In this document: positions 36,384-55,863 of the stretch, piece by piece
Layout: every line of letters starts with the position of its first letter
Numbering within the stretch: the stretch's first letter is position 1
NCBI GenBank assembly: GCA_035763445.1
Contig: DASUBD010000190.1
Coordinates: forward strand, 1 to 56,158
Direction: 5' to 3'
Source: Candidatus Angelobacter sp.
GTDB taxonomy: Bacteria > Acidobacteriota > Terriglobia > Terriglobales > Acidobacteriaceae
Length of the DNA stretch: 56,158 nucleotides
Made by a program: the position numbers and the translations under genes
The notes under the pieces: generated by a model
The model's input: only the letters and a program-made list of their open reading frames with translations
Databases searched by the model: none
What the model was told of the DNA's origin: nothing

Positions 36384-36714
36384 TAGGGCACCTGGGCTTG
36401 CCAGTCCGTTTCGCAACGCGGTTGTTTGCAGGAAGACGATTCTCCGCATCATCCTATTGTCGTTTAATTCAAGTACGAACACTGGTGACGAAAGTCACAC
36501 TCAAATGCTCGCAACAAGGGATCGACCACCCAGGGACGCCGGGAGGGCGAGAGAAAGCAGAAAGAGTTTGTCACCCGCCAAGAATACTTTTTCTTTGAGT
36601 GAAAGCCCGGCCAGGGCAATATATCGCTTGACCCCGTCAGGCGCGCTCTCTCATATGTACCGTGTGTCGCCCATTCCATATAGAATCTCGGATTATCGGG
36701 GTGAGGATCGAGAC

Positions 36715-37539
36715 ATGAAACAGCGGCGCTCCAAATCGTCCATTAAGTGGCGGTGTATTTTCAGATTCGCCTTCCTCTTGATCCTGGGATGTATCGGTTG
36801 CAGCAAGCCGCCGATGTTCCACGTCGTGGCACGCAGTGAACGGGCGACTGAAGGCGAACGGTACAAGATCTTTCTCAAAGGGCGCGAGTTGGGAACGGTC
36901 ACCGGCAGTGGCACGTTCGCGTTCGATGCCGACGGCCGGAAGGGCGATACCTTCCAACAGATGCAGCCCCAGGATCTGGAGGTCAGAATACCCTGGGTTT
37001 GTGGATGGGTAAAAACGGATTTCTCGTTGTACCTGGCCCATCCCGACGAGATTGAACGTGCCCGAGCCGAACACCGCCCTATTCAGGCCGGCATGAGCGT
37101 CTCGTACATGCCGCCCGCGTTCGATTGGGTCACGATCTTTGTCGATAACCGTGGCGGGCCGCTACAGACGGTTTCGATTGGCGAATTGCAGGAACAGGTG
37201 CCAGCGGGAGCGGCACAACGCGTCCTTTTGCCCTATTCGGAGGGTTGCGACAAGGCGAAGGATGTGCGCCTCAATGGAGCGGTTGTGGCGCCGGTCAGCA
37301 CTCGGCAAACCCTGCTGATCGACATCTCGCATTCCCATTGCTACCGTGTCGAATGGGCAGGCTACGGCTTCGATGACTCAGGCCACGGCAAAACAATTTA
37401 CCAGCCACACCCTTTCCAGTTCCTGGACAGCAACCCCGACTTTTTTATGGAACCAATGCCAGGCTCCGTGGTAACAGCAGGAAATGGCACCGTGAGGGAT
37501 ACCCTAAAGGACGTAGCCTGCCCTAAGCGTGTTCGCTAG
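36715..37539 (+). CDS. lipoprotein, function unknown
   Basis: MKQRRSKSSIKWRCIFRFAFLLILGCIGCSKPP contains a lipobox-like L-G-C. GGTGAGGA SD lies upstream of the ATG at 36715. The gene is divergent from the secreted pair. Confidence 0.65.
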   Translation: MKQRRSKSSIKWRCIFRFAFLLILGCIGCSKPPMFHVVARSERATEGERYKIFLKGRELGTVTGSGTFAFDADGRKGDTFQQMQPQDLEVRIPWVCGWVKTDFSLYLAHPDEIERARAEHRPIQAGMSVSYMPPAFDWVTIFVDNRGGPLQTVSIGELQEQVPAGAAQRVLLPYSEGCDKAKDVRLNGAVVAPVSTRQTLLIDISHSHCYRVEWAGYGFDDSGHGKTIYQPHPFQFLDSNPDFFMEPMPGSVVTAGNGTVRDTLKDVACPKRVR

Positions 37540-38345: not shown

Positions 38346-41300
38346 CTAATGCCTCTGATTCGGCGACTTCCTCCGGAACCTTTCGATTCGCTCAGCAGCC
38401 GATATTGGTTGCGCCGGTGAAGCCGTCGAGGGACTCTCAGCCCCTTCGGTCTCATATTGTCGGTTCGCGAGGAGATCACGGAGGACAGCAAGCGCTACGG
38501 GGCGACGCAGTCTCCCAAGCTCAAGATCCGCCTGGCTCGCTGTCGTGAGCAGACAGTTTAGGCAAGCTGATGTGCACTTCCGATCGTGCTCGGAGTTGCG
38601 GTACAGCAACTCCGCTGTTCGTTCAAACCAACTTCTAGCGTTGGCATTTGTAGCAAGCTCAGACACGTGTCCTGCTCCACCGGCGGTGTTGTCGAAAAGG
38701 TAAAGCCCCAATCTGGCGGCTTGACCTGAAGGAGCAAAGTGCACACCAAGCTCCCGATGATCTATTTCCAGAAGCTCCGCGCCAGCTAATCGCAAGCCGT
38801 GACCAAGCGTCACTATTACGTCGCTCGATAGGTCTCGATGACCCACACTGGAAAAATCAAGTTGAAGAATATCCGTAACATGGGTTGCGGCGAAGAGGTG
38901 ATTCCGAAAGACGGGAGACGCATCGCGAGGCCAACAGATCCCTCGATCTAAATGCAAGGCGGTGTGGTCGGAAAACCCCTTTGGGAGGTTCATTCGTCCT
39001 TCGCCGTGATCGGGTTCGCTTTGAGAATACCCGCACCGTGTGCATATAGCGAAACCTTTTTCATTTTCGCCATTGTTGTAGGAGAGCATCTCTCCGCCCT
39101 CGCACAATTCGGCCGAAAGGTGACGGATTCCCGCGAAATCGTCCGTTCGGATGTTCGACCTGCCTTCTATGAATGCCATTGTGGCTAAGGACGTGTCGCC
39201 AATCCGCTCAACATTTCCTTCCCACTGTGGGGGATCCCAAACAGCGGTGGAATATCCGTAACGAGCGATAAGAAGGGGCTCGCCTTGATCACGCTTCATG
39301 CATGTGCAGCCCTTGATCTTACAGAGGGGCGTCTGGTCTGGCAGAAAAGAATAGGAGACATGTCCTGCATCGCACACGTACTTCCAACAGCGTTTGCCAA
39401 ACCCAGTTTCTTCCGCACCTTTCCTCCACGCCGGCAAGACACCCTGCGATGTATAGGTGCGGCCGCCTACCAAAACCTTAGAGCCGGGGACGTATTCGCT
39501 CACCGCAAGAATTCCGCTCCGCTCAAGCTTTATGGGCACCCTCGACACCGAGCGATTCGATGGCACGGTGAGCGACTGCACTCCAATTGGAAACCCGTAA
39601 CGCGGCAAAAACTGGCGAGTTCCTAACTCTTCTATAACTGTCGTCCCCCACAGAGCATCCGCTTGATGAGCGATTGCGTTTAGCTGGGATATCGACGTCT
39701 TCTCTGTCCACCGTAAGCGCCGCACCCACTCTTCAACCAACCCATCATAATCGCTTCTCCATTCAACGCACGCCTTTCGGAATGAATGTGCAACCTCAGC
39801 CATGAGTGAGTCCCAAGCTTGAACTTTGTTGGACAGTGGAGTGCTTGCTAACAAGGTCTTGATCTTTTCAAGATATGGCGACCCGGCTTCTCTCAATGCT
39901 TCAATAAAATTTCCAAACTGGTCTGCTACACTCAGCTGCTGATCACCCCACCATGGATAATCTGTTCGCAGATTGAGTTCATATGCGAATTCATGCGGTC
40001 TATCAGGCCATTTTTCGCTGCTACGAACGATCGGAAGACGAGGACGACCAAGCAGCCAACCCATCTTCTGAAAAGCGTTCATCGCACCAACACGTGTCAT
40101 CGGTAGATAGATAAGTCGAAAGAACTCACCCAATAGAAACGCATGCAGGTGCTTACGGCTGAATCGTTCCCTTCCGAGGAGGACAGAGGGTTCGCGCAGA
40201 GGTCGATGAAAAAAAGCGGTGAAGTCTCGGAAAACCGCATGATCAAAAGCAGTCGTTCGAGCGTAAGTTGCGACGATTGATGACCCGTCCGAGCGGCGCC
40301 CGGCGCGCCCACCACGCTGCTGGTAGTTTGCCCGGCTCGGAGGTACATTGCCAAGCAATACGCCTGAAAGACCCCCAATATCTATCCCAACTTCCAAAGT
40401 CGTCGTGGCGCTTAGAACGTTTCGAGCTCCTTTCGAAAACAAGTCCTGCAACCGCCGGTTCTCATCACTGCTCAGCTGGGCGGAGTGTTCTTCTGCCCAA
40501 AGACCTATTTGGAAGGCGGGGTCATTCTTAAATGATCGTCGAGATCGTCCGAGCCGCGGGTGATTATCGAGCTCTTCTGGCAACGCAAGCTCCAAAGAAT
40601 CATACGACCCTTGCTCTGGTGCGCAACGAAAAACAGAGCGGGGCCAGACGTGTCCCGTGATTCTGCACACAAACAATTTTTCTGGCACACGCAGAGTGAG
40701 ATGTTTCAAACGAAGGCGAATGGCATCGCGTGGAGCTCCATCTCGACTCTGACGCGAGCTCGATTCCAGCCAAGTAACACCGGATTCGGCCATTTGCCGA
40801 AGCTGGTCAAAACATGCCTGGAGCACGGGAACAATAAGTTCGTTCGACAGTTCCGCTGTGCAGCCGGCACTCCTAAGAACATTCAGGCAAAACGCGTTCC
40901 TTCGTGCAGGTGGGTTTCTGTTGATGTCTCCAATCATTGGGACCATCGTCCCAGTCCGATCCCGAAGTCCAACCCACCGGCCAACCGGGAAATATGTGTC
41001 ATTCTGGTCCGCGTCAATGTTGCCGAGAGTAATGGCCCGATCGGCGCGGAGCGTATCACAAAGCCCAGCAACAAACAGAGGCCAATTTTGGATAAACACC
41101 TGAGCTGGTTCGCTGCTCATCCGGCCCAATATCTCGTCTGGCGGCCGAAGACCAGCAATTCCTGGGTAACATATTTCAGCTAATCCAAGTGTCTCCAGCG
41201 AGATTTGTGACCATGCTGGGCTGACAAATTCGGCACTTAGGAGTCGATCAGCAGCGCGTGCAATGTCCTTGTGGTTAGCTTCCCACACTTGCTGGTTCCA

Positions 41301-43586
41301 TTCTTCCGCACGATGGTTCTGCCCTCTTTCACGAGCAAAGAACTGGGCCAGAAGAGGGCGAATAGCCAACTTGGCTGTCCATTCAGAAATTGGGACGCCC
41401 TGCTGGAGGGCTTTCAATCGCGCAGTCTTGCCAGCGAGCTCGATCTCTATGTCCTGCCGTTCGAATGCGCTCAAAGATTCGCTGGCGAACTCGACAGAGA
41501 GAAACTCGATACTCCGCTGGAGCCGCGCACGCGAGTGCTCATCAGAGGCGCCCTGTGAAAGTGTTTCCCAAATCACCACACGACGCATTTGTGCCTCGTG
41601 CTGTGTGGTTAAGAGCGGTCCAAGACGTGCCGCCTCTCGTCGGCTGTCACTGAACACGAGTAAGCGTCGTCCGCGTGCGGGCAGCCATTGTCGATCACTT
41701 GCGTTGGTGACAGGCATTGTTGCCAAGAGGCTCTCGGCAGCAACTGGTAACATAAGCGCATCCGGAATCTTTATAGGACCAAAGTTGCTTTTGTCCCCAC
41801 CGCAGTTTGGACATGTTTCAAGTTCATGCATTTGGACGAATTCGCCGTCCGCTTGTTCACATGAACCGCTCTTAAGATCAAAACTGAAACCAAGCGTGCC
41901 TTCCCCCGGCCGGCAGAACAAATACGCAGCTTCTCGTATTTGTCCAGATTGCCATCGATGGCGCGGATGAAGAGTGTTGGAGGTAAGCCGCCTCACACCA
42001 GCTAATAGCCACTCACCGCAATTTTCGCAGCGGGCCAAGGTCAGTGTTGCGCTCTCACAGGAACTGCATCGATCGTAAGGCTCGCTAACGAGTTCACCAC
42101 CTCCGGGTAGACGCGGTCCCTTAGCCGAACATGCCGGATTTGCGCATGCAGTTACTGTCGAGGGAGCGCGAAATAGGATATGCAACCTGTGAGGCAGTAG
42201 AGGGAGCTCATCAACCTGACGTCGTGCTCGTGCTCCAAGCTGAAGTAGCTTTGCCGTGGCCTTCGTGGCGTCCGCACCGTTCTCCGAGGGCCACAGGAGT
42301 GCTGACAATTCCTTCAGTTTTGTAAGCGATGCCCCCCGCTTCTCCCAGACAAGAGCCTCGAGTTGATGAATAATTGGAGCACGTTCCAGCAAGGCCATAA
42401 GAACCCGAGCGGGTGATTCCTCACCCAGAGTCACATTGACGGCATCTGGGCCGACCAAAGGTGCCATAGCCGCTCGGACTGCACCAGCGGCGGTTGAGTC
42501 AGAGATGAGCTGATTGTTCTCCACGAAAGGAATAGATTCAATGTGATCCACCTGCAGGTCACTTGGTCTGCAGGTCCGCGATGGCGGCGACGCTTCTGGA
42601 AAGGCGTGGCGTACCGGCGTGCCGTGCACTGTATGTACCAGCTCTATCGGCTTCGAGAATAACTCAGCACCAAATTTCTTAAGCACCTGTGCATCGCCGC
42701 CAAAGGTGGCCGATGTTGCAATTTGGAGAACTTCTGAGGGTGAAAGCCCACATCGCAATAGAACTCGGCGAAGCAATAAAGAGAGTTCCGCAGCGAGTGT
42801 GCCACTGTAAAGATGAGCCTCATCAATAACAATCGTTCTTAGTGCCGGCCCAAAGAACGAAGTATCCTGAGGACGGCACAACATATATTCGAGCATCGAA
42901 TAATTTGTTACTAGTACATCGGGCGGGGAAAGTCGGGCCGACTCCCGAGTTCGTTTTCGACATGGCCCAAATTTCGGATATCCAATGCTGTTCGCGTGCT
43001 GTTCGTTCTCAGGTGTTTCGCTTGTGAAATGGAACAGCGTAATATCGGATTGTGGCTGCAACCAGCGATATAAACGTTCCACTTGATCATTTACCAATGC
43101 GTTGATGGGATACAGAATGACCACGCGAACGCCGCGGTCACTCTGGGGACGCGGATGTTGAAAGAGGTCGTTCAGCAACGGAAGCAAGAATGCCTCGGTC
43201 TTCCCAGCACCAGTGCCTGCACTGACAACTATCGCGGGCCGTTCCGGATCGGGCCGCGCTGCCCTCATAATGCACTCTTCTTGGTGACGATAGAGGGGCT
43301 TCGAGACGTCAAAAGCACCACTTTTCTCTACGCACTTCGCCAGATTAGGAGAGAGAACGCCAGCTTTTGATAGTAGAGCAATGTTGTTTTCTGAGACAGA
43401 TGCAGGAAAAATGCTTTCAACCCAAAGGTCCCCAACAGTTCCTTGATGATCATCGGAGAATAATTCCATGCATTGCTTCAGGAGCTCCGGATCTCGCAAA
43501 TAGACTCGCGACTCGATGAATTCGAGTAATCGTGATCTGAGTCTGGCATGTGTGTCAACCGCATCCAACTGGAACTTGTCTGTCAT
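38346..43586 (-). CDS. giant DEAD/DEAH-box helicase with internal zinc ribbons and C-terminal DUF1998/MrfA-type Cys cluster (DruE-like)
   Basis: - Helicase motifs: motif I SAGTGAGKTEAF, motif II VIDEAHLYSG, FSDSRREAARL, and motif V/VI TTTLEVGIDIGGL...YQQRGGRAGRR.
- Zinc ribbons: CANPACSAKG...CSSCES...CENCGEW and CPNCGG.
- C-terminal Cys cluster: KCTSACLNCLLTTASQ.
- Start: I chose ATG at 43586, which overlaps the upstream stop as ATGA (43583-43586). Confidence 0.9.
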   Translation of the reverse strand: MTDKFQLDAVDTHARLRSRLLEFIESRVYLRDPELLKQCMELFSDDHQGTVGDLWVESIFPASVSENNIALLSKAGVLSPNLAKCVEKSGAFDVSKPLYRHQEECIMRAARPDPERPAIVVSAGTGAGKTEAFLLPLLNDLFQHPRPQSDRGVRVVILYPINALVNDQVERLYRWLQPQSDITLFHFTSETPENEQHANSIGYPKFGPCRKRTRESARLSPPDVLVTNYSMLEYMLCRPQDTSFFGPALRTIVIDEAHLYSGTLAAELSLLLRRVLLRCGLSPSEVLQIATSATFGGDAQVLKKFGAELFSKPIELVHTVHGTPVRHAFPEASPPSRTCRPSDLQVDHIESIPFVENNQLISDSTAAGAVRAAMAPLVGPDAVNVTLGEESPARVLMALLERAPIIHQLEALVWEKRGASLTKLKELSALLWPSENGADATKATAKLLQLGARARRQVDELPLLPHRLHILFRAPSTVTACANPACSAKGPRLPGGGELVSEPYDRCSSCESATLTLARCENCGEWLLAGVRRLTSNTLHPRHRWQSGQIREAAYLFCRPGEGTLGFSFDLKSGSCEQADGEFVQMHELETCPNCGGDKSNFGPIKIPDALMLPVAAESLLATMPVTNASDRQWLPARGRRLLVFSDSRREAARLGPLLTTQHEAQMRRVVIWETLSQGASDEHSRARLQRSIEFLSVEFASESLSAFERQDIEIELAGKTARLKALQQGVPISEWTAKLAIRPLLAQFFARERGQNHRAEEWNQQVWEANHKDIARAADRLLSAEFVSPAWSQISLETLGLAEICYPGIAGLRPPDEILGRMSSEPAQVFIQNWPLFVAGLCDTLRADRAITLGNIDADQNDTYFPVGRWVGLRDRTGTMVPMIGDINRNPPARRNAFCLNVLRSAGCTAELSNELIVPVLQACFDQLRQMAESGVTWLESSSRQSRDGAPRDAIRLRLKHLTLRVPEKLFVCRITGHVWPRSVFRCAPEQGSYDSLELALPEELDNHPRLGRSRRSFKNDPAFQIGLWAEEHSAQLSSDENRRLQDLFSKGARNVLSATTTLEVGIDIGGLSGVLLGNVPPSRANYQQRGGRAGRRSDGSSIVATYARTTAFDHAVFRDFTAFFHRPLREPSVLLGRERFSRKHLHAFLLGEFFRLIYLPMTRVGAMNAFQKMGWLLGRPRLPIVRSSEKWPDRPHEFAYELNLRTDYPWWGDQQLSVADQFGNFIEALREAGSPYLEKIKTLLASTPLSNKVQAWDSLMAEVAHSFRKACVEWRSDYDGLVEEWVRRLRWTEKTSISQLNAIAHQADALWGTTVIEELGTRQFLPRYGFPIGVQSLTVPSNRSVSRVPIKLERSGILAVSEYVPGSKVLVGGRTYTSQGVLPAWRKGAEETGFGKRCWKYVCDAGHVSYSFLPDQTPLCKIKGCTCMKRDQGEPLLIARYGYSTAVWDPPQWEGNVERIGDTSLATMAFIEGRSNIRTDDFAGIRHLSAELCEGGEMLSYNNGENEKGFAICTRCGYSQSEPDHGEGRMNLPKGFSDHTALHLDRGICWPRDASPVFRNHLFAATHVTDILQLDFSSVGHRDLSSDVIVTLGHGLRLAGAELLEIDHRELGVHFAPSGQAARLGLYLFDNTAGGAGHVSELATNANARSWFERTAELLYRNSEHDRKCTSACLNCLLTTASQADLELGRLRRPVALAVLRDLLANRQYETEGAESPSTASPAQPISAAERIERFRRKSPNQRH

Positions 43587-46500
43587 TTCACTTTGCCCAA
43601 CACCTCTAACAATTCCAAAACAAGCCATCTGCGAAATGGCTGGACTCCTATTGCAACCCGTAGGTTCGTGGATCGAATGTTTCTCCCGTGGTACAGATCT
43701 ACTGCTTCGTTCCAGAGTACCCGTCGAACAAAAGCTGGATCAGCACCCAACTCCTTTACCCCCCGCTGAAAGAGTTCGGTTCTTACAGCATCGAGAGTCC
43801 CGGACTCCCTCGGCAACCCGGCAATTATGTTCGCGAACATGGACAACAATAGTTGGCGTTCCGCATCGGAAACGTTCGAATACATTGATTTCACACCGCC
43901 CACGACGATTGCCGCCAGCAAGACTGGATTAATTAACGCGAGCTCCGACGACCCCATCCAACTGTCTTTGAGATCGCTTTCTGGCGATCCAGTCAACAAT
44001 CTCGTTGCGCGCAATATTTCAGAGGCTTGAAGTTCGTTCGGCATCCAATGCCAAAAGAACTCCCGAATAACAGCGCCCCAACCGGACGACCCGATGCTTT
44101 CATCGGTGTAGGACATGTCCCCGAATCCGCTGTCGGCCACCCACGAAAGAAGAGTCGGTAATTGTGATTTGTCAATGCATTTGGCTGCAAGATCCTTTAG
44201 TCTCGGATGTAATAAAGGAATGCGCCACCAGCGCATCCAGGGCCTAACAGCTTCCCAGGATTCAGGTGTTAAAACTTCTCTTAGCTCATCGATACATTCA
44301 CTGTGAACGAAACGAGACCCGAGGCATGATCCACGGAAGCTCACTGCGAAGGCCAAGGCCTGCTGCGTGGTATGGACAATCAGATCCCTGCCGACACATG
44401 AAATCTGTCTACGATCCACGTTGCGCGGCGCGTGTTCTCCTCTTTGCCAGATCCAAACGCCGTGCTCGGGTCCAAAATCGAGGGCACTGGAAAGCGTCAG
44501 GCAGTACCCGCCCTCTGTCGCGTCTATGTTTGCGATTAAGCCACTGTCCGAGATAGCAAGGGCAAGATCAATGCCCTGGCCTGAGGAGTTATAAGGTCCA
44601 ATTGTAAGCCGCAACGGTTCCCCTACGCCTGCAAGGACACTATCCAGCCCCGCAACACCCTGACGACGGCTTCGCGCGCAGAACCTTTGTCCCTCTAACA
44701 GTGCCCATTCCTCGGTCTCCACTTGAATGCCATGCCACGACCGCGGGGGACGGATAAACAGTTTCTTGCCAATAAAATCCTGGCGATCGAGCATGTCATT
44801 CGAATTCAGTACAAGCCAACCAGAATTTTTCTTCCGCAAAGCCGCCCCCCAGACATCATTAAGAAGAACAATTCGTGCCGCAAGCTTGTGCACGCCGGTT
44901 CCTTCCGTCGCTAGGATCCCAGCCTTTATGCGATCGTAGTTGAGAGGCGCCAATGCGACCTTGAATCCGCTTGCTGATCGTCGCACGATCTGATCGCCGA
45001 TAATGAGAGCTATTGCGGTCAGTTCTGGTGGCATCGAAACGTCAGCGGTCGAATATTCCCCGAGCCTACCTCCCGACAGGCGTATTTGAATACTGGACGG
45101 AGACTGACGCCTACTTCCGGCAGGCTCCAATGGTTGCCACAATAACTGGCCTTCCAATTCAACCTTCAAATTTTGGGGACAGCCGTTCGGAAAATCGTGG
45201 AGCACCCAAGAGTTTTGGGCAACCCGCCTCATGCGAATTCCTTTAGGAAAGACCTGAATATCCCCTCGACATGCCAGCACAACAGGGCGACCTGGTTTGA
45301 CGTTCCAGAGATCCTGTCGTTTTCCTGTAGATCGATCAAAGAACACGAGTTCATCTTCACCATTGAAAATACTGAGAGAATAGCCGGACGCGATGCAGTG
45401 GCCTTTTTCAATGAGTGTAATGCTCAATTGCGTCTCTAAAAGGGGTATGCGGAATTCGCCGAGAATGAATCTGCCTTGTTCCGACCGTATCAGCCTTGCG
45501 CGATATTCCTCTCCAAACTGAACGACATACTCTGGAGCGCTGAACTCCTCCGGCCAATTTGGTGAAGCCTCGATGCAGACACTCGGATCTGCACTGTCCC
45601 AAAGCAATCGAATGACAAATAGGTCTGACTCTTCATCCTCCTGGCCGAGCAAACCCTGAGAGGGCTGTGATTCGGTTTTCTCCGAAGCGGCCGCGATGAG
45701 CTGGTCGACATCGTGCCAGGAGAACCAAGTGCTACCTTCGAGCACTTTTCGCAGTTCTGCGGTACTTTGTAAACCGCTTCGATATTGACGGACCTCTGCC
45801 CACACATTCCGAAATTCAGGTGCTTGTAAGTCTGGATCATCAAGGAGATCATTAATGGCGACTGGGAGTTTTGCTCCTGAGAGCCACTTCGGTAGACGGC
45901 GCAAGCCGCTCGTTGTTAAGCCGAACTGCAAATACACCGTTCGCAACCAGGCCATGGCACCTTCACGTCCGAACGCGTGACGAAGGTTGAATCTTCTGCA
46001 GGCATCTTCCGTTGCTTCTTGTAACCAATACTTGGGTACGGCCCTGTCTCCGTTGAACAATTCCGACCTGAGATGCTCTCCGATTTCGCGATAAATCTGC
46101 GGCCACAACTCTCCCTCTGTTGCACGCCTACGCGCGACATCGAAACAATAGGCTAGGAAGACAATCGCTAAAGCCTCCCTTTGTGTCAATGCTCGGCTCT
46201 GGAACGTTCTGCTTTTCTGGCCTTCGATGCTCGCTGATTTTGCCCAACGGTGTAAGACGCTCAAATCGTCCGCTGACCAGTTCAGCTCAACCATTGACCA
46301 ACGGGAATCATCAACGAGTAATCCCAAGCTCTTTGCTCGGGCTAGCAAACGCATTGCGGCACTCCAAACAAAGAACTCTGAAGACGCGCTCAGATCGAAA
46401 AATAGAGTGGGTTTGCCCTCCGGTCCCCAATTAGCACCAATAGCAGATGCGATTGCTGCCTGGGCTGCGTCCGGCGTGTTCACGGATTCGGATGGCACTG

Positions 46501-48340
46501 CCGCGTCTCTGCCCACCAAAGTGTAGTATCCACTGCCAATCGGTTTGATAATCGCCGAAGACCCTATCGTCCTCTCGAGAGATGCTTCGCTCCCGTCGGA
46601 GAAGGTCGAACAGATCCGTTTGAGATCAATGCGTCGTACTGGGCCAGGCTGGTCACGCAACGCGACATATATTGCGGTCTCCGCTTCCGATAAGTCGGCA
46701 CCTGATTGGTCGGCAGCACACATCACAGTGCCGCCTTCAACTTTGAGGTAACCAGAGCAGCTGGAACATAAGCGCTCTAAAACAGGAGAAGGTAGATTAA
46801 TGTCGGAAGTACGAGAATCACGTAAAACAGCACTCCGTAGCTCTTCGACCGTAACTGTCTTGGCTACCGAGAAGACTTTTCTTATTCGGCTCATGATCGG
46901 GTTCCGCGGCACTTCCGCAGACCAGAACCACTCTCGGCTTTGATCCAACCATGTTAGCCCGCGGAGCAGAGGGAGGAACTTTTCGATGTAAGATCGTGAG
47001 TGCCCGCTTTTAGCGTCGGCGAGACCATCGGCAACGTATGTTACCGACGTGATCCCGTATTGGCTGATCCTTTTGCGTGCTTCGTTCAAAATCTTACTGA
47101 CCAAGCCTATCGATTGCGAATCAACGGCGATGCGAACGCCACCCTCCTCGATAATTGAGAATGACACGGGAAGTTCAAACATCTCTGCTATCTTTCGCAG
47201 GGACTCGAGTCTAAAGGGTCGCGAAGTCAAACCGCTGCTCAAAAGCTTACGCTCAAGTTCCTCCGCGTCGCAGGGGCTGTGCTTATTGACAAAGCAGAGC
47301 GCTAATCGAAGCGAACCAGGGGCTTTGGATCCCATTCGTTCACGAATTTTCTCCAGAATTTGCCGGACTCTTTCTCGTGTTAAGCCAAGCGGTCGACCGA
47401 TCTCTTCCAAAGTTTCTGTTGGCCTACCGTCAAGGCCGAAATATCTGATCGCAATTTCTCCGTTTCGTCCTTCGCGCACAACTCGACGGCAGAGCTCGAC
47501 ATCGAGACATTCCGGGGCGGCCTCCTCGGAAGATAGCAGGTCCGAGCGGAAAAGTGTTGCCAGTTCAGAAAGCCACTCTTTTTGCCACGGTGCGAGCTGA
47601 TCAGACAGTTCAATTCCGAGTTCTTTTAACTGGTTGCGGACGATGGCCACTTCCTCTGGTGATAGAGTATTCGCCAGGAATGCTTCGCCTCCTTGAAGCA
47701 ACTCTCCAACCACGCTAATGCCCCGGAAACGCAGAGAAAGTTTCCCGCAGCCAATTGTGTCTATTCCACGCAAGAGGTGGAGATTGACAGAGAGCAGCTG
47801 TTCTTTGCTGGATTGATATAGCGACTGAAGGCTGTATAGTTCAGCTTCGGTCATGCCCAGATGCAAATCCAAATTCGAAATTAGTTCTTGGATTTCCTGG
47901 AGTGTCTTGCTCCCAAGATTCTTCAGTCGGCGAATCTTGTCAGCCCTCAGCGAAACGAGTTCACCAATTGTGCTTATTTTCGCTTGCTGTAGACAATTAG
48001 CAGCGCGGACCGACATCGAAAACCGAGCAACAGGAGTGTCAAGCAATGAAGCGAAGGGCAGTTTTTGTGTGTTAGAGAGAACCGCACCGTCGATTGCTGC
48101 TACGAGGAACCCCGCATTTGCTCGGTGAAGCTCACATGCTAGAACACACGCAAACTCCCAATCGCAGCTGAGTCCGTGCAGATCAGAGAAAAGCGGGATC
48201 CCTTGTCCTACCAGAAATCGTAAAACATTGGGCACCGCCACCCGATTTGCTCGCAAAGAGGGATAGATAAATGCTCGCAAAGCCACGCGCGCTGAGTCAA
48301 TCATTGGACGGAGTGGTTCACGTTTGGATGCTGACTGCAA
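43583..48340 (-). CDS. 1585-aa protein: N-terminal RNA polymerase alpha-CTD-like HhH module(s) plus sigma-70 region-4-like HTH, followed by ~1200 aa of unknown function
   Basis: - Alpha-CTD-like segment: FSMSVRAANCLQQAKISTIGELVSLRADKIRRLKNLGSKTLQEIQELISNLDL matches the RpoA C-terminal domain pattern (LS-x-R-x-x-N-C-L...I-x-x-x-G-x-L...L-x-x-x-x-N-x-G-x-K-S/T-x-x-E-I).
- A weaker second copy: LSLRFRGISVVGELLQ...EEVAIVRNQLKELGIEL.
- Sigma-r4-like segment: IRYFGLDGRPTETLEEIGRPLGLTRERVRQILEKIRERM matches sigma-70 region 4.2.
- The start is uncertain: TTG at 48340 or ATG at 48304. Confidence 0.88.
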   Translation of the reverse strand: MQSASKREPLRPMIDSARVALRAFIYPSLRANRVAVPNVLRFLVGQGIPLFSDLHGLSCDWEFACVLACELHRANAGFLVAAIDGAVLSNTQKLPFASLLDTPVARFSMSVRAANCLQQAKISTIGELVSLRADKIRRLKNLGSKTLQEIQELISNLDLHLGMTEAELYSLQSLYQSSKEQLLSVNLHLLRGIDTIGCGKLSLRFRGISVVGELLQGGEAFLANTLSPEEVAIVRNQLKELGIELSDQLAPWQKEWLSELATLFRSDLLSSEEAAPECLDVELCRRVVREGRNGEIAIRYFGLDGRPTETLEEIGRPLGLTRERVRQILEKIRERMGSKAPGSLRLALCFVNKHSPCDAEELERKLLSSGLTSRPFRLESLRKIAEMFELPVSFSIIEEGGVRIAVDSQSIGLVSKILNEARKRISQYGITSVTYVADGLADAKSGHSRSYIEKFLPLLRGLTWLDQSREWFWSAEVPRNPIMSRIRKVFSVAKTVTVEELRSAVLRDSRTSDINLPSPVLERLCSSCSGYLKVEGGTVMCAADQSGADLSEAETAIYVALRDQPGPVRRIDLKRICSTFSDGSEASLERTIGSSAIIKPIGSGYYTLVGRDAAVPSESVNTPDAAQAAIASAIGANWGPEGKPTLFFDLSASSEFFVWSAAMRLLARAKSLGLLVDDSRWSMVELNWSADDLSVLHRWAKSASIEGQKSRTFQSRALTQREALAIVFLAYCFDVARRRATEGELWPQIYREIGEHLRSELFNGDRAVPKYWLQEATEDACRRFNLRHAFGREGAMAWLRTVYLQFGLTTSGLRRLPKWLSGAKLPVAINDLLDDPDLQAPEFRNVWAEVRQYRSGLQSTAELRKVLEGSTWFSWHDVDQLIAAASEKTESQPSQGLLGQEDEESDLFVIRLLWDSADPSVCIEASPNWPEEFSAPEYVVQFGEEYRARLIRSEQGRFILGEFRIPLLETQLSITLIEKGHCIASGYSLSIFNGEDELVFFDRSTGKRQDLWNVKPGRPVVLACRGDIQVFPKGIRMRRVAQNSWVLHDFPNGCPQNLKVELEGQLLWQPLEPAGSRRQSPSSIQIRLSGGRLGEYSTADVSMPPELTAIALIIGDQIVRRSASGFKVALAPLNYDRIKAGILATEGTGVHKLAARIVLLNDVWGAALRKKNSGWLVLNSNDMLDRQDFIGKKLFIRPPRSWHGIQVETEEWALLEGQRFCARSRRQGVAGLDSVLAGVGEPLRLTIGPYNSSGQGIDLALAISDSGLIANIDATEGGYCLTLSSALDFGPEHGVWIWQRGEHAPRNVDRRQISCVGRDLIVHTTQQALAFAVSFRGSCLGSRFVHSECIDELREVLTPESWEAVRPWMRWWRIPLLHPRLKDLAAKCIDKSQLPTLLSWVADSGFGDMSYTDESIGSSGWGAVIREFFWHWMPNELQASEILRATRLLTGSPESDLKDSWMGSSELALINPVLLAAIVVGGVKSMYSNVSDAERQLLLSMFANIIAGLPRESGTLDAVRTELFQRGVKELGADPAFVRRVLWNEAVDLYHGRNIRSTNLRVAIGVQPFRRWLVLELLEVLGKVK

Positions 48341-48462: not shown

Positions 48463-49539
48463 ATGATTTACAAACGAGGCCAGACGTACTGGTATAAATT
48501 CGCCTGGAGCATCAGGCAGCGAGACGGGACTTCGCGGTCGTTCTTGATACGCCGATCAGCGCGGACAAAGATCCAGGCCGAAGCTGAAGAAGTCGAACAT
48601 GAGCACCGTCGTGCCATCCGGTTGGGCGAAGTTCATCCGCTCGATCCCTGGCCCAAACCGCCGGCGCCTGAAGCGCCGATCCTAAGGGAGTTCACAACTC
48701 GCTTTCTCGAATACGCGAGATTGCATGTGAAGGAAAGCACTTTCGAGTTTTACAAAGGTGCTGTTGCCCGCTTACTGGCATTCCCCGAGCTCGCTAATAT
48801 ACAAATCTCCAAAATCAATCCAGAGATCGTTTCCCGCTTCGCCGGAAGCCGGAAGGCTAAGTCCGTAAGCGTAAGTGCAATCAATGGTGATCTACGGACA
48901 TTGCGCCGCTTGCTCAGGCTGGCTTTTGAATGGGAGATCATCCCGAGGGCACCTGTCGTGCATGCCCTCCCTGGAGAAAGAACCAGAAATCGGGTGATCG
49001 CATTCGAAGAAGAACAAGCATATCTGACGTGTTCGGGACCAAACCTGCGTGCGCTGACCATTCTTGCAGTTGATACAGGGATGCGCCCAAAATCGGAGTT
49101 GTTCAGGCTGGAGTGGCCTCAGGTCCACTTGGAACCGTCTGAAACGATGCCGAACGGACACATTAAAGTCAAAGAGGGAAAGACTCAGAGCGCGGAGAGA
49201 ATCCTCCCATTGACACCCCGGGGCGGGGAAACCCTACTTATATTAAGGATAGAGGTTCGCAGGAAGCGGTGGGTGTTTCCCGGACCCGGGAATTCAGGTC
49301 ACATCGTCAGCATTCAGAAGTCCCATCTCAGGGCAATCCTGAAAGCCGGCCTGGAGCGGTTCCCGTTCTACTGCTGGCGCCACACATTCGGTACGAGGTG
49401 CGCCGAGAGCGGAATGGATCGGCACACCCTCGCCAAATTGATGGGGCACAGCTCACCATGGATCACAGAGAAGTACTACATCCACGTGACCGAGCCGCAT
49501 ATCAGCTCCGGGTTCGGCCGTTTATGGCGTATCATATGA
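48463..49539 (+). CDS. tyrosine-type site-specific integrase
   Basis: The N-terminal arm-type MIYKRGQTYWYKFAW is present. Catalytic residues are in AVDTGMRPKSELFRLEW (Arg), CWRHTFGTRCAESG (H-x-x-R) and GHSSPWITEKYYIHV (His...Tyr). Confidence 0.92.
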   Translation: MIYKRGQTYWYKFAWSIRQRDGTSRSFLIRRSARTKIQAEAEEVEHEHRRAIRLGEVHPLDPWPKPPAPEAPILREFTTRFLEYARLHVKESTFEFYKGAVARLLAFPELANIQISKINPEIVSRFAGSRKAKSVSVSAINGDLRTLRRLLRLAFEWEIIPRAPVVHALPGERTRNRVIAFEEEQAYLTCSGPNLRALTILAVDTGMRPKSELFRLEWPQVHLEPSETMPNGHIKVKEGKTQSAERILPLTPRGGETLLILRIEVRRKRWVFPGPGNSGHIVSIQKSHLRAILKAGLERFPFYCWRHTFGTRCAESGMDRHTLAKLMGHSSPWITEKYYIHVTEPHISSGFGRLWRII

Positions 49540-49689
49540 AGCGTCTGAATCCATTCAGCCCTGAACTCTGGCCCAAGCACCTGGTTCGGGACCAGTCCGT
49601 CGGAGGTCCAAATCATGCCTACTGCTTCCCCGGCCTTGTTTACAGTCGATTCTGCGGAACGGGAAGCAACGAGAGAATCGGCTCAACCT

Positions 49690-50724
49690 TTATGACCGAG
49701 GCGGATAGGTCGTTGACGACGTTGCTTCTGCAGGAGGAGTACTGATTCGGCTTCTCTCGTCAGCGAGACGTTTCCACTCGTCAATATCGAATGTACCAAC
49801 GTGATTTGCCAAATCATCGTGATGCAAGCTTGCCTCAGTTACTGTAATCGTATGTAAAACGATACCGTTCTTGCCGACAACTCTTGGCCTCAGCGCGTCA
49901 AAAGCCCTCGGATCAGGAAAATCCCTGAAATTCCGATAGAAGATATGAGCGCAGATGTCCGCCACTTGGAGGCCAATCATTGACTTCGAATCGCGAAAGT
50001 TTGTGTGATTTCTAAATAAGTCATTGAAGTCGAACAAGCCTTTGTAGACTAGATATTTTCTTTTGAACGGATGATCAGGAGGCCATTCTTTGATCGTCGT
50101 CACTCCGCGCTGCCGACTGTTTTTCATTAGATCATTGCGCAGCCACTCGCGCCAGAACTCAACGTGCTCGTCTCTTCTGACGAAGCTCTCATCAATGGCG
50201 ATCTCAATATTTTCAAACTCGCTGGAGTGCTCCAGTTCTGCGAAACTGACAATCGCATGTTGTAGTGTTTCGATAATTGCTTGCTGAAGCGCGATAACCC
50301 AAAACACGTTAGATGTGCTTCGGTTTCTAACCCAGCCGCTCATCTGTCGATAGGTCTCTCTCAATTTGTTGTTCTCATGCTCGGCGCACAACTCAGAGGA
50401 CAACTGGAATAGCTCGGCAGCCTGATCGCGCAGCCGTTCGACAAATGATTCTTCGGTGGCTTGCGTGTCTCCGCCGACGAGCGTCAGGTGAATTTCTCGC
50501 CTAGTCGGAGGGAGCACCTTGTATGCGAAAGAGTACAGCTGGTTTGCCGTTAGATGTGGCCCCTTCAACTCCGCCTTGCTCTGTCCTACAACCGTGCGTT
50601 TCCAAGCCGCGAAACGCTTTTCCAATTCAGGCAATTCCTTATCGGAAACATTTAGTCCGCAAAAAAGAGACTTGCCTTTGTTCGTCCAAGAAAATGACCC
50701 GGATTCGTCGATAAAAATCCACAT
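49690..50724 (-). CDS. DUF3800-family protein
   Basis: The N-terminus MWIFIDESGSFSW is the hallmark F/Y-I-D-E-S-G start of DUF3800. The 344-aa size fits. Confidence 0.75.
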   Translation of the reverse strand: MWIFIDESGSFSWTNKGKSLFCGLNVSDKELPELEKRFAAWKRTVVGQSKAELKGPHLTANQLYSFAYKVLPPTRREIHLTLVGGDTQATEESFVERLRDQAAELFQLSSELCAEHENNKLRETYRQMSGWVRNRSTSNVFWVIALQQAIIETLQHAIVSFAELEHSSEFENIEIAIDESFVRRDEHVEFWREWLRNDLMKNSRQRGVTTIKEWPPDHPFKRKYLVYKGLFDFNDLFRNHTNFRDSKSMIGLQVADICAHIFYRNFRDFPDPRAFDALRPRVVGKNGIVLHTITVTEASLHHDDLANHVGTFDIDEWKRLADERSRISTPPAEATSSTTYPPRS

Positions 50725-52353: not shown

Positions 52354-53799
52354 TCAAACCCGACACGGAAGGCGGACAGCATCGCCTCGACCCTTCCGGC
52401 TTCTGCTTGTCGTACCGCAATCGAGGCAGAAAGGATCCGGCTTCGGTTCAACGAAACTGATTCGTCTCTCACGAGCAAAGTTCATGATGTGGCCCATCTC
52501 AGCGTTCGGCTCGAAAAGGCCAGTGAACATCATCATTAAATCTGTTGCGGCTTGAGCGGCTGATTGAACATTGAGTGTGATTACACTAGGTTCCGTGACT
52601 TGAGGATCATCCACGTAATTTTGGGCTCTCTGCTCTTCAGCGTTGTTTCCCTCCGAGTTGAGCCGCGAAGCAGGAATCGCGCCAGCACAATCGAGACACC
52701 CACCACCGAGGCCGGGTAGTACCAAGCGAGTTGCTGTGAAGATGTTCGCCACCTCACGCGTGTACTTGTCCGCTGTGACTTTCGCGCCGATCTGCACGCC
52801 AGGGATCACGTACTGGTGAACTAGAGCGTTGAAGACGAGGCGACTCCGAATTGAGTCCGTAGCCAGGAAAATGAAATCTGCATCGCGAACCAACATGGCC
52901 GTAGAGGAATCGAGGATATCGGCGACCAAAGCGTCGTATGTGATTGAAGGATTTGCCTTCTTAGCGACCCGTTTCGCTATATGAACTTTGTGAGCTGCCA
53001 GCCGCTTGCCGAGCCGTTGCAGCCAACCCCAGCGACTTCCGGTTAGCCAAGTTCTAGCATCCCATCGCGTTGCACCAACAACGCGTGGCAGATTGGTTAT
53101 GTCGATTCGATCGAAGTCAATGGCTACGATGTGACCGACACCTAATTTCGCAAGCCACTCATTCAACAACGAGCCACCACCGCCGAGTCCGATGATGACG
53201 ATTTTTAGTCCCCGGAGAATCTCTTGGCCTGCGTCACCGAAAAGGCGTGCATGGCGGTCATACACTCGCTTTGACCGACGCGGCATATCCTGCGGCGATG
53301 GGTACAAAAGACGCGTGTGCTTTCCAACGATCTTCATGTTCTTTAAAGGGAAAACTCCCTCAGTTGTCCAGATCTCTCCAGCTACGGCGGCCTTGGCGAA
53401 GACCAGTGCGCCGACCGGAATGCCGTTTGAGATTTGAAGCAGAGCCGGGTAGCCTCGCTTGTGAGAGGCAACGTCGTCAGGGGAGAAGCCGACAGAATCA
53501 AAGCCGCCGTGATTGTGGATGGCTAGATAACAGAGACCCTCGGTCGAACAAAAGTCCGATTTTTCAGCGACGAAGTTGGCAGTCAACGCCCGGTAGCCGC
53601 GAGTCCCTGGAATGTAATCGACTCCATCCTTCGCGAGGAACACCTCGCGAGCTAAAAGTCGAGTCCCATTCGGTGTCTGTGCGATGCCGGCAGCTATAAC
53701 GGCTCCATGCTCGTCAAAATCGCCGGGAAACAAATGCTGGTGCAGCCTGTTGAATAAGACCTCATCAATGGTGAGCGTGATCGGCAATTTAAGCTTCAT
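52354..53799 (-). CDS. fusion of JAB/JAMM-type isopeptidase domain (N-terminal) and ThiF/E1-like adenylating domain (C-terminal)
   Basis: - JAMM motifs: DEHGAVIAAG (Glu) and AIHNHGGFDSVGFSPDD (H-x-H...S...D).
- E1 Rossmann motif: KIVIIGLGGGGSLLNEWLAKLGVGHIVAIDFDRIDITNLPR.
- Two CxxC pairs, GGGCLDCAG and PFCLDCG, as in ThiF/MoeB zinc sites.
- The ATG at 53799 overlaps the E2-like stop as ATGA. Confidence 0.9.
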   Translation of the reverse strand: MKLKLPITLTIDEVLFNRLHQHLFPGDFDEHGAVIAAGIAQTPNGTRLLAREVFLAKDGVDYIPGTRGYRALTANFVAEKSDFCSTEGLCYLAIHNHGGFDSVGFSPDDVASHKRGYPALLQISNGIPVGALVFAKAAVAGEIWTTEGVFPLKNMKIVGKHTRLLYPSPQDMPRRSKRVYDRHARLFGDAGQEILRGLKIVIIGLGGGGSLLNEWLAKLGVGHIVAIDFDRIDITNLPRVVGATRWDARTWLTGSRWGWLQRLGKRLAAHKVHIAKRVAKKANPSITYDALVADILDSSTAMLVRDADFIFLATDSIRSRLVFNALVHQYVIPGVQIGAKVTADKYTREVANIFTATRLVLPGLGGGCLDCAGAIPASRLNSEGNNAEEQRAQNYVDDPQVTEPSVITLNVQSAAQAATDLMMMFTGLFEPNAEMGHIMNFARERRISFVEPKPDPFCLDCGTTSRSRKGRGDAVRLPCRV

Positions 53800-54173
53800 A
53801 ATTTTCGGAACCACTCCAGGACTTTCGCTAATTTGAGTGCTGCTGTATCGTGCGCTGCATTCCATTTGTTTGAACGACGCGAGAGCTGCAAGACCTGCTG
53901 GTTGCGCCATGTCACCTGCTGGACACCTTGTCGGGCTTGGCCATCTCGGCGACTGATCCCCCCAATGATGTAATGTGGGTATATGTCGGCTCTTGGATAG
54001 AGATAGCTAATCCGAAATCCGCAAGAGGCAACCGACGGCTGGTACTGCGAGCCGATCTCGATGTCAACCACAGTTACGTAGGCACCTCCCTCTCCATCTT
54101 CCTCAGCGATGACAGCGCTATTGGGGAACATGGCCTTAATTTCGTCAATCCCAGCTGAGACGTCTGGCGTCAT
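53796..54173 (-). CDS. prokaryotic E2/UBC-fold-like protein (Prok-E2_E-like)
   Basis: The 125-aa protein contains FRISYLYPRADIYPHYIIGG (a YP...P flap as in the UBC/RWD fold), followed by TWRNQQVLQLSRRSNKW and a C-terminal helix. It sits between the Ubl and E1 genes. GGAG SD lies upstream. Confidence 0.75.
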   Translation of the reverse strand: MTPDVSAGIDEIKAMFPNSAVIAEEDGEGGAYVTVVDIEIGSQYQPSVASCGFRISYLYPRADIYPHYIIGGISRRDGQARQGVQQVTWRNQQVLQLSRRSNKWNAAHDTAALKLAKVLEWFRKL

Positions 54174-54187
54174 ATCGCGGCTCCGAA

Positions 54188-54535
54188 TTAGGAATTGTCG
54201 TCCGGCGCAGTCGCACGGAATTCTTCGTTTTCGTGGATCTTTACATTCTCGTTGTCACCGATCAGCGTGAGCTTGCCGTCTCCGTGCTTTTCGAAAAGTT
54301 GGAAGTCCTTTTCAATCGCAACTCCCTTGCTGATCGCGGCTTCTTTGATTTGGAGCCCTGTGACGTCTTTCTCCTGAAAGCCGATCGGCTGGTTATTTAC
54401 CTTGATGGTGATGACTTTCACCTTTTCATTGGTCTGCGTTGTGTTTTCCAAGTGCCCTCCTAAGGCTTTCTGAGTTCTTGATGGGCAGGATGGTATTCCG
54501 ATTTGCCGTTTGTTGTCAACGGTTTTTTCGGACAT
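54188..54535 (-). CDS. ubiquitin-like beta-grasp protein (Multiubiquitin-family-like), single domain with ~38-aa N-terminal extension
   Basis: KVITIKVNNQPIGFQEKDVTGLQIKEAAISKGVAIEKDFQLFEKHGDGKLTLIGDNENVKIHENEEFRATAPDDNS matches the Multiubiquitin domain pattern as I recall it (I-x-V-N...T-G-x-Q-I...L...D-x-x-V-x-I...F...A-P). ATG at 54535 was chosen because the longer track ORF would run into the divergent XRE gene. Confidence 0.75.
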   Translation of the reverse strand: MSEKTVDNKRQIGIPSCPSRTQKALGGHLENTTQTNEKVKVITIKVNNQPIGFQEKDVTGLQIKEAAISKGVAIEKDFQLFEKHGDGKLTLIGDNENVKIHENEEFRATAPDDNS

Positions 54536-54632
54536 CGCATACGGACGATATAAGTTGCTTATTTTCTGGTATTTTGCAGAAATCGAAGCTAGAATCAAAT
54601 TCGAGACATCACCACGAGGGAGCGGGTAACGG
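54536..54632. promoter_or_regulatory. AT-rich divergent intergenic region with candidate operator
   Basis: This is the 97-nt gap between the Ubl operon and the XRE gene. It contains the inverted repeat tttctg-N8-cagaaa (54563-54582) and a TAGAAT -10-like hexamer at 54590-54595. Both are short and could occur by chance. Confidence 0.35.
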
Positions 54633-55001
54633 ATGGAAAACTTCGGGCAGAGGCTTCGGAATTTGCGTGGAGGCCGTTCCCAAAGAGAAGTTGCGAGTGC
54701 TCTGGGCATGCCTGCCACGACTCTATCAACGCTAGAAAATCAAGAAAGCGTGCCACGTGGAGAGGTTCTACAGAAACTGGCTGAGCATTTCAAAGTACCA
54801 CTTAGCTATTTCTTCCGAACCCCAGACTCAGAACCTAAAGTAAATGCAGCTGCTCTGGATTGGTTGCAAAGGCTGAGAGCTAATAAGTTTCAAGGCAAAG
54901 AAACCGTGGCTACCAATGCAAGTGATCTCGTGGATGAAGAAGTTAAACGCAAAATTGCGAGAGCCCTGAAGCGGCATGCAGAAATTTCAACCGACAAGTA
55001 A
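54633..55001 (+). CDS. XRE-family HTH transcriptional regulator (CapH/ImmR-like)
   Basis: FGQRLRNLRGGRSQREVASALGMPATTLSTLENQESVPRGEVLQKLAEHFKVPLSYFF is a canonical Cro/C1-type HTH. Confidence 0.9.
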   Translation: MENFGQRLRNLRGGRSQREVASALGMPATTLSTLENQESVPRGEVLQKLAEHFKVPLSYFFRTPDSEPKVNAAALDWLQRLRANKFQGKETVATNASDLVDEEVKRKIARALKRHAEISTDK

Positions 55002-55863
55002 TCCCCTTCTAGAACCACAACCGGAGGAAATAGCCGAAACCCTTCTTGTTGAGGCTGGCTCTGCGAATGAGCTTCCAACGGACGAACGCAAGCTGTTGAA
55101 CTACCTTGGCCTTCAACAGCTGAGCTTCGACTTTATGCAGGAACTTGAGGATTTCATTCCCAAGGACAAGAAAACTCTTCCTGATATTCGCGCAGCTCTT
55201 AGCGTAAACGATCGAATTGTGGCGACGCAGGCGGGACTCCCCAGTAAGCGTAAGAAATGGGCGACGCTGCACGAGATCGCTCATTTCATCATGCCTGAGC
55301 ACCAAGCGAAGTTGTTTCTACCAGACAATGACCAGACGCTAGGCTGGTGGGTAAAGATGCGATTTGAGCGGGAGGCGAATGCCATAGCCGCCGAACTTAT
55401 GTTCCAAGGTAATCGTTTCACCGAGGAATCGTTGAACCTTCCCACTTCGATCCGAGCACCTATTCAGTTGTCAGCTAATTATGATGCCTCGCTTGAATCT
55501 GCCATTCGGCGCTATGCGGAACGGCACGTACTCCCTTGCGCCGTAATCGTCTACGACAAGATTCCAAGAGAATTCGATGAAGGTGATGCTGACGAATCAG
55601 AATACAAAATTCATTACACGATCACTTCTTTGCCGTTTCGACGAAAGTACTTTGCTGGTCTGGAGATCAAAGGTGGATCTGTCAAGGGCAGTGAACTCCT
55701 TCGAAGAGGTCACGGCTGGAGATTCAACGATATTACAGAGGCTGAATTGATTGTTGGTCGAGGGGGAGAAGAGGAACCTTGGCATTTTGAGACTGAAGTT
55801 TTCTCCAACAGCTACAAAATCTTCCAATTCCTTCTGCCGCCAAAGGAGACTCTGCAGTTTTAG
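54976..55863 (+). CDS. ImmA/IrrE-family (DUF955) zinc metallopeptidase (CapP-like)
   Basis: The HEXXH motif in WATLHEIAHFIMPEH is followed by FEREANAIAAELMF (the third ligand Glu region). It overlaps the XRE gene by 26 nt. Confidence 0.88.
   Translation: MQKFQPTSNPLLEPQPEEIAETLLVEAGSANELPTDERKLLNYLGLQQLSFDFMQELEDFIPKDKKTLPDIRAALSVNDRIVATQAGLPSKRKKWATLHEIAHFIMPEHQAKLFLPDNDQTLGWWVKMRFEREANAIAAELMFQGNRFTEESLNLPTSIRAPIQLSANYDASLESAIRRYAERHVLPCAVIVYDKIPREFDEGDADESEYKIHYTITSLPFRRKYFAGLEIKGGSVKGSELLRRGHGWRFNDITEAELIVGRGGEEEPWHFETEVFSNSYKIFQFLLPPKETLQF

Follow-up and report, generated by a model that had tools for sequence, protein, structure and literature searches.

What are two domains of the bacterial transcription machinery doing at the N terminus of a giant protein that is encoded beside a helicase? 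This question is raised by the gene at positions 43583 to 48304 (minus strand) of contig DASUBD010000190.1 from Candidatus Angelobacter sp. (GenBank assembly GCA_035763445.1), a stretch of 56,158 nucleotides that appears to be an entire metagenomic contig, was analyzed as a whole, and is called the window below. The product, here called the partner of the adjacent DruE-type helicase, was identified from the list of open reading frames (ORFs) and their translations. It has 1573 amino acids when read from the ATG at 48304 and 1585 amino acids when the TTG at 48340 is used as the start. Residues are numbered here from the ATG, and the numbers of an earlier reading made from the sequence alone (the sequence-only reading) are 12 higher. 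The segment singled out by that reading, 47333 to 48043 on the minus strand, thus covers residues 100 to 336 counted from the TTG and residues 88 to 324 counted from the ATG, and both peptides quoted in it were found in the partner translation. Our answer is that the two domains, a C-terminal domain of the RNA polymerase (RNAP) alpha subunit (alpha-CTD) and a region 4 of sigma-70 (sigma4), probably belong to the N-terminal part of a DNA-binding arm, and that the partner and its helicase form a two-gene defence system similar to Druantia type III.

The partner protein starts with copies of two promoter-reading domains of RNAP, alpha-CTD and sigma region 4. This had been proposed in the sequence-only reading and is confirmed here, with matches that are far beyond chance for both domains. 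The Pfam search and the structural superposition suggested at that time were carried out on the protein; RNA_pol_A_CTD (PF03118) and Sigma70_r4 (PF04545) both scored above their gathering cutoffs, and the partner is the only protein in the window that has the two together. The alpha-CTD spans residues 82 to 152 (47849 to 48061, minus strand) and was assigned by Pfam, PDB sequence matches, Foldseek, and ungapped alignment. Its Pfam match had an E value of 8e-16 and 57.9 to 61 bits, compared to a cutoff of 23.8, over profile positions 9/10 to 65 of 67, and phmmer searches of PDB sequences returned RpoA chains (E = 7e-11 to 1e-6). Residues 1 to 648 were modelled with AlphaFold2 (AF2) from 40 relatives, with a mean predicted local distance difference test score (pLDDT) of 88.8, and the alpha-CTD segment of the model had a pLDDT of >90 and the alpha-CTD fold, a compact helical domain that contains two helix-hairpin-helix motifs. 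In Foldseek this segment superposed on 9zum, 3n4m, 1lb2, and 3n97, targets that include alpha-CTD/DNA complexes, with target-normalised template modelling (TM) scores of 0.82 to 0.95 and root mean square deviations (rmsd) of 0.6 to 0.8 Å over about 66 residues at 38 to 39% identity.

The residues of the alpha-CTD that read DNA are largely retained. In the ungapped register, R265, N268, C269, G296, and K298 of E. coli correspond to R100, N103, C104, G131, and K133 of the partner. The complete 265 determinant (L262, R265, N268, C269, G296, K298, and S299), which following the E. coli literature we take to be the set of DNA-binding residues, reads M/R/N/C/G/K/T. The 261 determinant is changed, with A, R, and S at the positions of D258, D259, and E261, and the 287 determinant is lost, with T285 to E288 replaced by R/A/D/K. 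No alpha N-terminal domain (alpha-NTD; RNA_pol_A_bac or RNA_pol_L) was detected in the partner by Pfam. A functional RpoA alpha-CTD working as a part of RNAP was therefore rejected as an identity for this domain, given the altered 261 and 287 determinants and the missing linkage to an alpha-NTD.

The sigma-70 region 4-like helix-turn-helix (HTH) lies at residues 265 to 325 (47330 to 47512, minus strand) and was likewise assigned by Pfam, PDB sequence matches, and Foldseek. Against a cutoff of 24.1, Sigma70_r4 reached 26.5 bits on the full protein and 31.5 bits when the segment was searched by itself, in a partial match that covers only profile positions 21 to 47 of 50. Searches of PDB sequences with phmmer gave region 4 of RpoS, SigA, and RpoD (E = 4e-7 to 1e-5, query residues 279 to 324), and the modelled domain superposed on domain 4 of Staphylococcus aureus sigmaA (4g6d_A) with a TM score of 0.82 and an rmsd of 1.6 Å, the E value with the whole model as the query being only 0.05. 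Residues T309 to Q315 of the partner (TRERVRQ) correspond to T583 to Q589 of sigma70, and the string TRERVRQI is identical in register. R584, E585, R586, R588, and Q589 are the residues of region 4.2 that contact the -35 element. Each of the partner residues T309, R310, E311, R312, R314, and Q315 is kept in 90% or more of 40 relatives. Pfam found neither Sigma70_r2 nor Sigma70_r3 in the partner, and a Sigma70_r2 match was present in 1 of 23 relatives; with regions 2 and 3 missing, the identification of the partner as a full sigma-70 family factor was rejected.

We additionally examined which residues are kept across the copies of these modules in related proteins. The copies were aligned to the E. 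coli alpha-CTD and to sigma70 region 4, and residues were counted at the DNA- and protein-contact positions known for the E. coli proteins. In 116 alpha-CTD copies from 107 related proteins, R265 was present in 110, G296 in 113, and N268 in 84, with K or R at position 297 in 93 and at position 298 in 90 and S or T at position 299 in 99. The DNA contacts of region 4.2 were almost invariant in 95 sigma4 copies (R584 in 90, E585, R586, and R588 in 94 each, and Q589 in all 95). The protein-contact surfaces vary. The 261 and 287 determinants of the alpha-CTD are variable or absent across the copies, and the positions at which sigma4 contacts activators or alpha (E591, R596, K597, R599, and R603) are variable or deleted, with the exception of K593, which is basic in 63 of 95 copies.

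The sequence-only reading had also proposed a weaker second alpha-CTD copy. On its own this segment (residues 173 to 242; 47579 to 47788, minus strand) has no significant similarity: the excised segment gave no match in Pfam, BLASTP detected no similarity to the first copy, and a phmmer search with the E. coli alpha-CTD reached only nonsignificant E values of 1.6 to 5 at residues 190 to 241. Its position nevertheless matches the weakly to clearly detectable second alpha-CTD of relatives (P0129, E = 2e-3; P0140, E = 5e-3; P0135, E = 0.02), which aligns to partner residues 173 to 242. Because of this positional equivalence, the segment is best read from the alignment as a degenerate alpha-CTD-like unit that has lost its DNA-contact residues. 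Many module proteins of about 700 amino acids have two or three clear alpha-CTD copies in tandem. The first 75 residues (48080 to 48304, minus strand) were modelled as a small alpha/beta domain of mixed strands and helices with a pLDDT of >90. In relative P0157, a significant N-terminal alpha-CTD at residues 4 to 57 aligns to partner residues 3 to 35, and the small domain may, tentatively, be the remnant of a further alpha-CTD-like unit. Of the arm domains, those captured from the transcription machinery are the alpha-CTD that is intact, the degenerate alpha-CTD-like units (one or two), and the sigma4 HTH. Two plus-strand ORFs inside the arm region (47049 to 47600 and 47853 to 48128) were taken as shadow ORFs of the partner gene.

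Behind sigma4, residues 330 to 600 (46505 to 47317, minus strand) form an array of three to four winged-helix domains. The AF2 model shows repeated units of three helices and a beta-hairpin with a pLDDT of >90 in this region, and Foldseek related them to proteins with winged helices in tandem, namely, SelB (1lva and 2uwm), the Rpc5 tWHD, Dcc1, and ESCRT-II. The arm of about 640 residues therefore has the order small N-terminal domain, alpha-CTD, degenerate alpha-CTD, sigma4, and three to four winged helices. An exhaustive HMMER search with residues 1 to 1200 returned 234 cluster representatives at E < 1e-30, and these relatives fell into three classes: full-length proteins of 1480 to 1710 amino acids with 25 to 36% identity, body-only proteins, and proteins of 350 to 950 amino acids that match only residues ~80 to 640 or ~270 to 640. 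The segment of sigma4 and winged helices is common to hundreds of proteins of this last size range. RNA_pol_A_CTD was found in 19 and Sigma70_r4 in 14 of 23 full-length or long relatives; in 62 arm-only proteins (350 to 950 amino acids) the corresponding counts were 53 and 55. Since arm-only and body-only proteins exist, and body-only and full-length ones share the DruE context, the partner is a fusion of a separable arm of about 640 residues to a DruE-partner body of about 930 residues. This arm is also found in other defence settings that are directed at DNA, namely, in a PglW profile, beside a MutL-like ATPase, beside an SNF2 helicase, and near BREX genes.

Several relatives show how the arm is combined elsewhere. 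The 2393-residue relative P0002 (contig L001, positions 2823 to 10004) carries the same body behind another N-terminal extension, which contains TerB, repeated winged-helix-like units, and a degenerate helix-hairpin-helix; the N-terminal arm of the partner family is therefore modular and swappable. The 761-residue protein P0164 (L020, 3743 to 7764), with two alpha-CTDs, sigma4, and winged HTH (wHTH) domains, directly follows a 555-residue HATPase_c_3 (MutL-like) protein, which hints that the two genes form a system of their own around this arm. The 203-residue protein P0008 (L021, 7001 to 7612; also in L022) has the reversed order, sigma4 and then alpha-CTD, and lies on a phage-like contig that is rich in small ORFs and encodes a DnaG-type primase. 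In a library of viral structures, many phage proteins that consist of a single domain bear the name 'RNA polymerase alpha subunit C-terminal'. Together with P0008, these proteins indicate that phages too deploy domains of the alpha-CTD and sigma4 type on their own. A scan of GTDB species-representative genomes with the body found no relative, and a megablast search of E. coli genomes with the partner gene found no match.

The body, residues 641 to 1573 (43586 to 46384, minus strand), is the core DruE-partner module as judged from the alignment, AF2, and Foldseek. Its predicted layout is a helical domain, a run of immunoglobulin (Ig)-like beta-sandwiches, and a second helical domain (mean pLDDT, 69), and its Foldseek matches, among them titin, Dscam, and ICAM with their tandem Ig domains, are at the class level only. 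The neighbouring gene, at 38346 to 43586 (minus strand), encodes a DruE-type 3'-5' helicase of the YprA/MrfA family with 1746 amino acids (Pfam DEAD, Helicase_C, and DUF1998/MZB; PADLOC DruE3, E = 5e-200), so the sequence-only reading was right in describing the partner as a defence-type protein with a helicase partner. The druE start codon, an ATG at 43586, overlaps the partner stop codon (ATGA). The pairing recurs elsewhere. The partner gene is directly followed by a DruE-like gene of 1750 to 1900 amino acids in L001, L008 to L010, and L012, that is, wherever the contig reaches far enough, and L014 has the same order; L007 and L011 are short contigs that end just inside the downstream gene and are uninformative on this point. 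The window helicase is 41.6% identical to a DEAD/DEAH helicase (DruE) on a Roseomonas plasmid, and on the Roseomonas mucosa plasmid this DruE adjoins a 1403-residue partner that is homologous to the body only. Body-only homologues of 900 to 1214 amino acids also sit upstream of DruE-like genes in L016 to L019. In L017 (2723 to 18537), as in L018 and L019, the body-only P0282 (927 amino acids) and a DruE of 1883 amino acids are part of a larger conserved array with the order DUF3780, DUF5131, unknown gene, DUF1156, partner, DruE, and UvrD_C-type helicase, the last of which contains NERD in L018 and L019. This array may be a methylase-containing relative of the partner-DruE system.

The closest known system is Druantia type III, in particular its compact 'III-B'-like helicases. 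As in Druantia type III, there are two genes, a large partner gene and, directly behind it and coupled to it in translation, the gene of a DruE-type helicase, and the pair lies in an integrase-flanked island. The helicase is compact and has no PLD nuclease domain by Pfam, as described for III-B (10.64898/2026.05.13.724758), and the helical, Ig-like, and helical layout of the body resembles that of E. coli DruH in the 2026 cryo-EM preprints. An identity with DruH was nevertheless rejected. The partner had no match to a PADLOC DruH model even at E ≤ 10, none of the 12 PADLOC models that match E. coli DruH matched five relatives from the body family, hhalign of the partner against E. coli DruH gave a probability of 0.6%, the YjiT Pfam family matched neither the partner nor its relatives, and a PDB profile search for a relation to DruH gave no relevant match, the PDB copy used by Foldseek holding no DruH structure. 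In addition, published DruH proteins are described as having no annotated or DNA-binding domains, whereas the window partner has an arm of 640 residues. Since the body matches no DruH model, we classify the pair from its sequence as a Druantia III-like variant with a non-DruH partner and a putative anti-phage role.

The arm itself is most similar to a part of PglW. In BREX type 2, PglW is a sensor protein in which an alpha-CTD-like helical domain and the wHTH modules behind it have been interpreted as a nucleic-acid-binding component (PMC12839542), and positions 803 to 953 of the PADLOC PglW model PDLC02512 match partner residues 88 to 326 (E = 3e-8). This model also matches 15 of 23 full-length and 32 of 62 arm-type relatives. 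PglW is further marked by a NERD nuclease, a pseudo-kinase and a kinase, an inactive STAND domain at its C terminus, and PglX and PglZ as neighbours. Unlike PglW, the partner has no NERD nuclease or kinase domains by Pfam, no PglX or PglZ is found among the scanned flanking genes (integrase, DUF3800, ThiF, and others), and a clear sigma-70 region 4 follows the alpha-CTDs, which the description of PglW does not mention. The claim in the sequence-only reading that the domain combination was undescribed therefore stands only in part, because an alpha-CTD-like domain with a wHTH array had been described in PglW; in the literature on alpha-CTD, sigma region 4, and defence we found no description of the sigma4 identity, of the nearly invariant -35-reading helix, or of the fusion to a DruE partner. 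The PADLOC model MzaA, from the candidate system Mza, gave a marginal match to the partner (E = 0.014, profile positions 613 to 652 of 683, the sigma4 segment only) and matched 11 of 23 full-length relatives with a best E value of 3e-24; a literature search yielded no usable description of MzaA, and the relation rests on the name of the PADLOC model. Compared to the RNAP complex on UP and -35 DNA (PDB 3N97), the arm has the same folds and the same DNA-contact residues. It differs in that both domains are in one chain, about 110 residues apart including the degenerate alpha-CTD, in that an alpha-NTD and sigma regions 2 and 3 are missing, and in that the intersubunit contacts of alpha D259 and E261 and of sigma R603 are not kept. 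The uncharacterised proteins of about 700 amino acids with two to three alpha-CTDs, sigma4, and wHTH domains, some of which match MzaA, have the same arm order, with 25 to 36% identity over residues ~80 to 640. They differ in having another, small C-terminal domain in place of the DruE-partner body, and one example follows a MutL-like HATPase_c_3 gene instead of preceding DruE.

A role in binding DNA is suggested because selection has acted on the DNA-reading residues only, because winged helices follow, and because the same arm is used in other DNA-directed defence settings. The arm most likely anchors to DNA or reads it, possibly at promoter-like sites, as predicted from these residues. The alpha-CTD would read an A/T-rich minor groove and sigma4 a hexamer in the major groove; since the recognition helix TRERVRQ is wholly conserved, a -35-like site of the TTGACA type is suggested. 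The arm may thereby anchor the partner-DruE machine on double-stranded DNA or guide it there, possibly to promoter-like sites of an invader. In E. coli, DNA binding is reported for DruH and action on junctions of single- and double-stranded DNA for DruE (10.64898/2026.05.12.722862; 10.64898/2026.05.13.724758). By analogy with the 2026 preprints on E. coli DruH and DruE, the Ig-rich body would sense infection or couple to DruE, which would then unwind and clear the DNA. We further considered that the arm could be an RNAP-independent promoter-reading head, in which a UP-element reader and a -35 reader with the recognition helix of the housekeeping sigma intact, both in one chain, find strong promoter-like DNA such as the early promoters of phages; this narrower proposal is attractive but rather doubtful. 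Some points weigh against the DNA-binding arm. A bait for enzymes and anti-sigma factors that recognise these surfaces would equally be expected to keep R265 and the recognition helix of sigma4; a UP-like and -35-like specificity is extrapolated from RNAP; confidence in the body model is only moderate, and its likeness to DruH is architectural only; and a scan of the 500 bp around the partner gene start detected no promoter motif of the sigma-70 type and hence gave no sign of a self-operator.

The first of these points leads to the proposal made in the sequence-only reading, an integrated decoy or bait for phage proteins that hijack RNAP. The alpha-CTD and sigma4 would mimic RNAP surfaces that are attacked by phages, and the DruE machine would become active once the bait is modified or bound. 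Phage takeover factors act on these surfaces, with ADP-ribosyltransferases at alpha R265 and proteins of the AsiA/gp67 type at sigma region 4, and the conserved R265 and sigma4.2 helix are thus themselves phage targets. The structure matched by sigma4, 4g6d, is sigmaA domain 4 with gp67 of phage G1, so phages do target this domain, and E. coli DruH has been proposed in a 2026 preprint as an infection sensor that senses proteins. However, the mimicry is poor, because the alpha-CTDs of the modules are mutually divergent, with a mean pairwise identity of 31% compared to 63% among 18 sampled RpoA alpha-CTDs (a rough comparison, as the RpoA sample was chosen by similarity to the query), and the partner copy is only about 38% identical to RpoAs. 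The protein-contact positions of both domains, K593 excepted, are mostly variable or deleted; the arm recurs in unrelated systems and also exists as stand-alone proteins, and it continues into three to four further winged helices of a nucleic-acid-binding type. The proposal is unsupported by these data and appears improbable to us.

The alternative that the helicase complex is tethered to promoters, also raised in the sequence-only reading, is nearer to the data than the decoy. In the form of a tether to RNAP itself, sigma4 would dock on the beta-flap tip or the alpha-CTD on transcription factors, and the complex would ride on RNAP or compete at it and so reach transcribed phage DNA. The core positions of region 4 stay hydrophobic (F563 as F/Y/L and I565 as W/L/F), and the family member with a Sigma70_r2 match fits this idea, but the partner lacks sigma regions 2 and 3 and does not keep the contacts of sigma R603 and of the alpha 261 determinant that join alpha-CTD to sigma4 in RNAP. 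We regard docking on RNAP as very unlikely. Equally unlikely is an autoregulator whose HTH-type domains repress or activate the promoter of the system itself. The partner gene does adjoin a divergent intergenic region of 120 to 160 bp that it shares with an integrase gene, many defence operons control their own promoters, and sigma4-type HTHs are common in regulators. Yet five or six domains of a DNA-binding type far exceed what an operator repressor needs, systems with only the body do without the arm, no promoter-like or repeated operator motif was detected upstream, and a recognition helix that is invariant across very different loci is contrary to operators that are specific to each locus. 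The DNA-binding arm remains the reading that we prefer.

Divergent from the partner gene, positions 48463 to 50724 encode a tyrosine integrase (358 amino acids, plus strand) and then a DUF3800 protein (344 amino acids, minus strand), which suggests that an integrated mobile element has the Druantia-like pair at its edge; a search of the window for tRNA genes found none. Positions 52354 to 55863 encode a ThiF/E1-like protein (518 amino acids), an ORF of 125 amino acids, a Multiubiquitin-domain protein (176 amino acids), and a divergent M78-peptidase/CapP-like protein (295 amino acids; PADLOC capP, E = 1e-16), and this cluster looks like a defence cluster of the ubiquitin-like conjugation type in the same island. 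Directly downstream of druE, three ORFs of 477, 350, and 360 amino acids (34000 to 37539) had no Pfam or PADLOC match and may be further cargo of the island. At 20970 to 22169, among genes of carbohydrate metabolism, a protein of 399 amino acids has bacterial eRF1-like domains (baeRF family 10/5, E = 8e-12); proteins of this family are in most cases associated with conflict systems.

Druantia III is being studied intensely in 2026, and DruH is still called enigmatic and without recognisable domains. A variant that has a different Ig-rich partner with a readable predicted DNA-binding arm offers a mutable handle on the recruitment of DruE to DNA, at R100, R310, E311, and Q315. The arm documents the exaptation of promoter-recognition domains of RNA polymerase by immune systems. 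Interest would be high if the arm were truly an RNAP-independent promoter reader: a promoter-reading head would then be shared by the Druantia-like pair, BREX systems of the PglW type, and systems with a MutL-like ATPase, and such systems would have a novel way to distinguish invader DNA from that of the host or to load effectors onto it. Because the arm is common to hundreds of uncharacterised proteins and to PglW, its DNA target would inform several defence systems.

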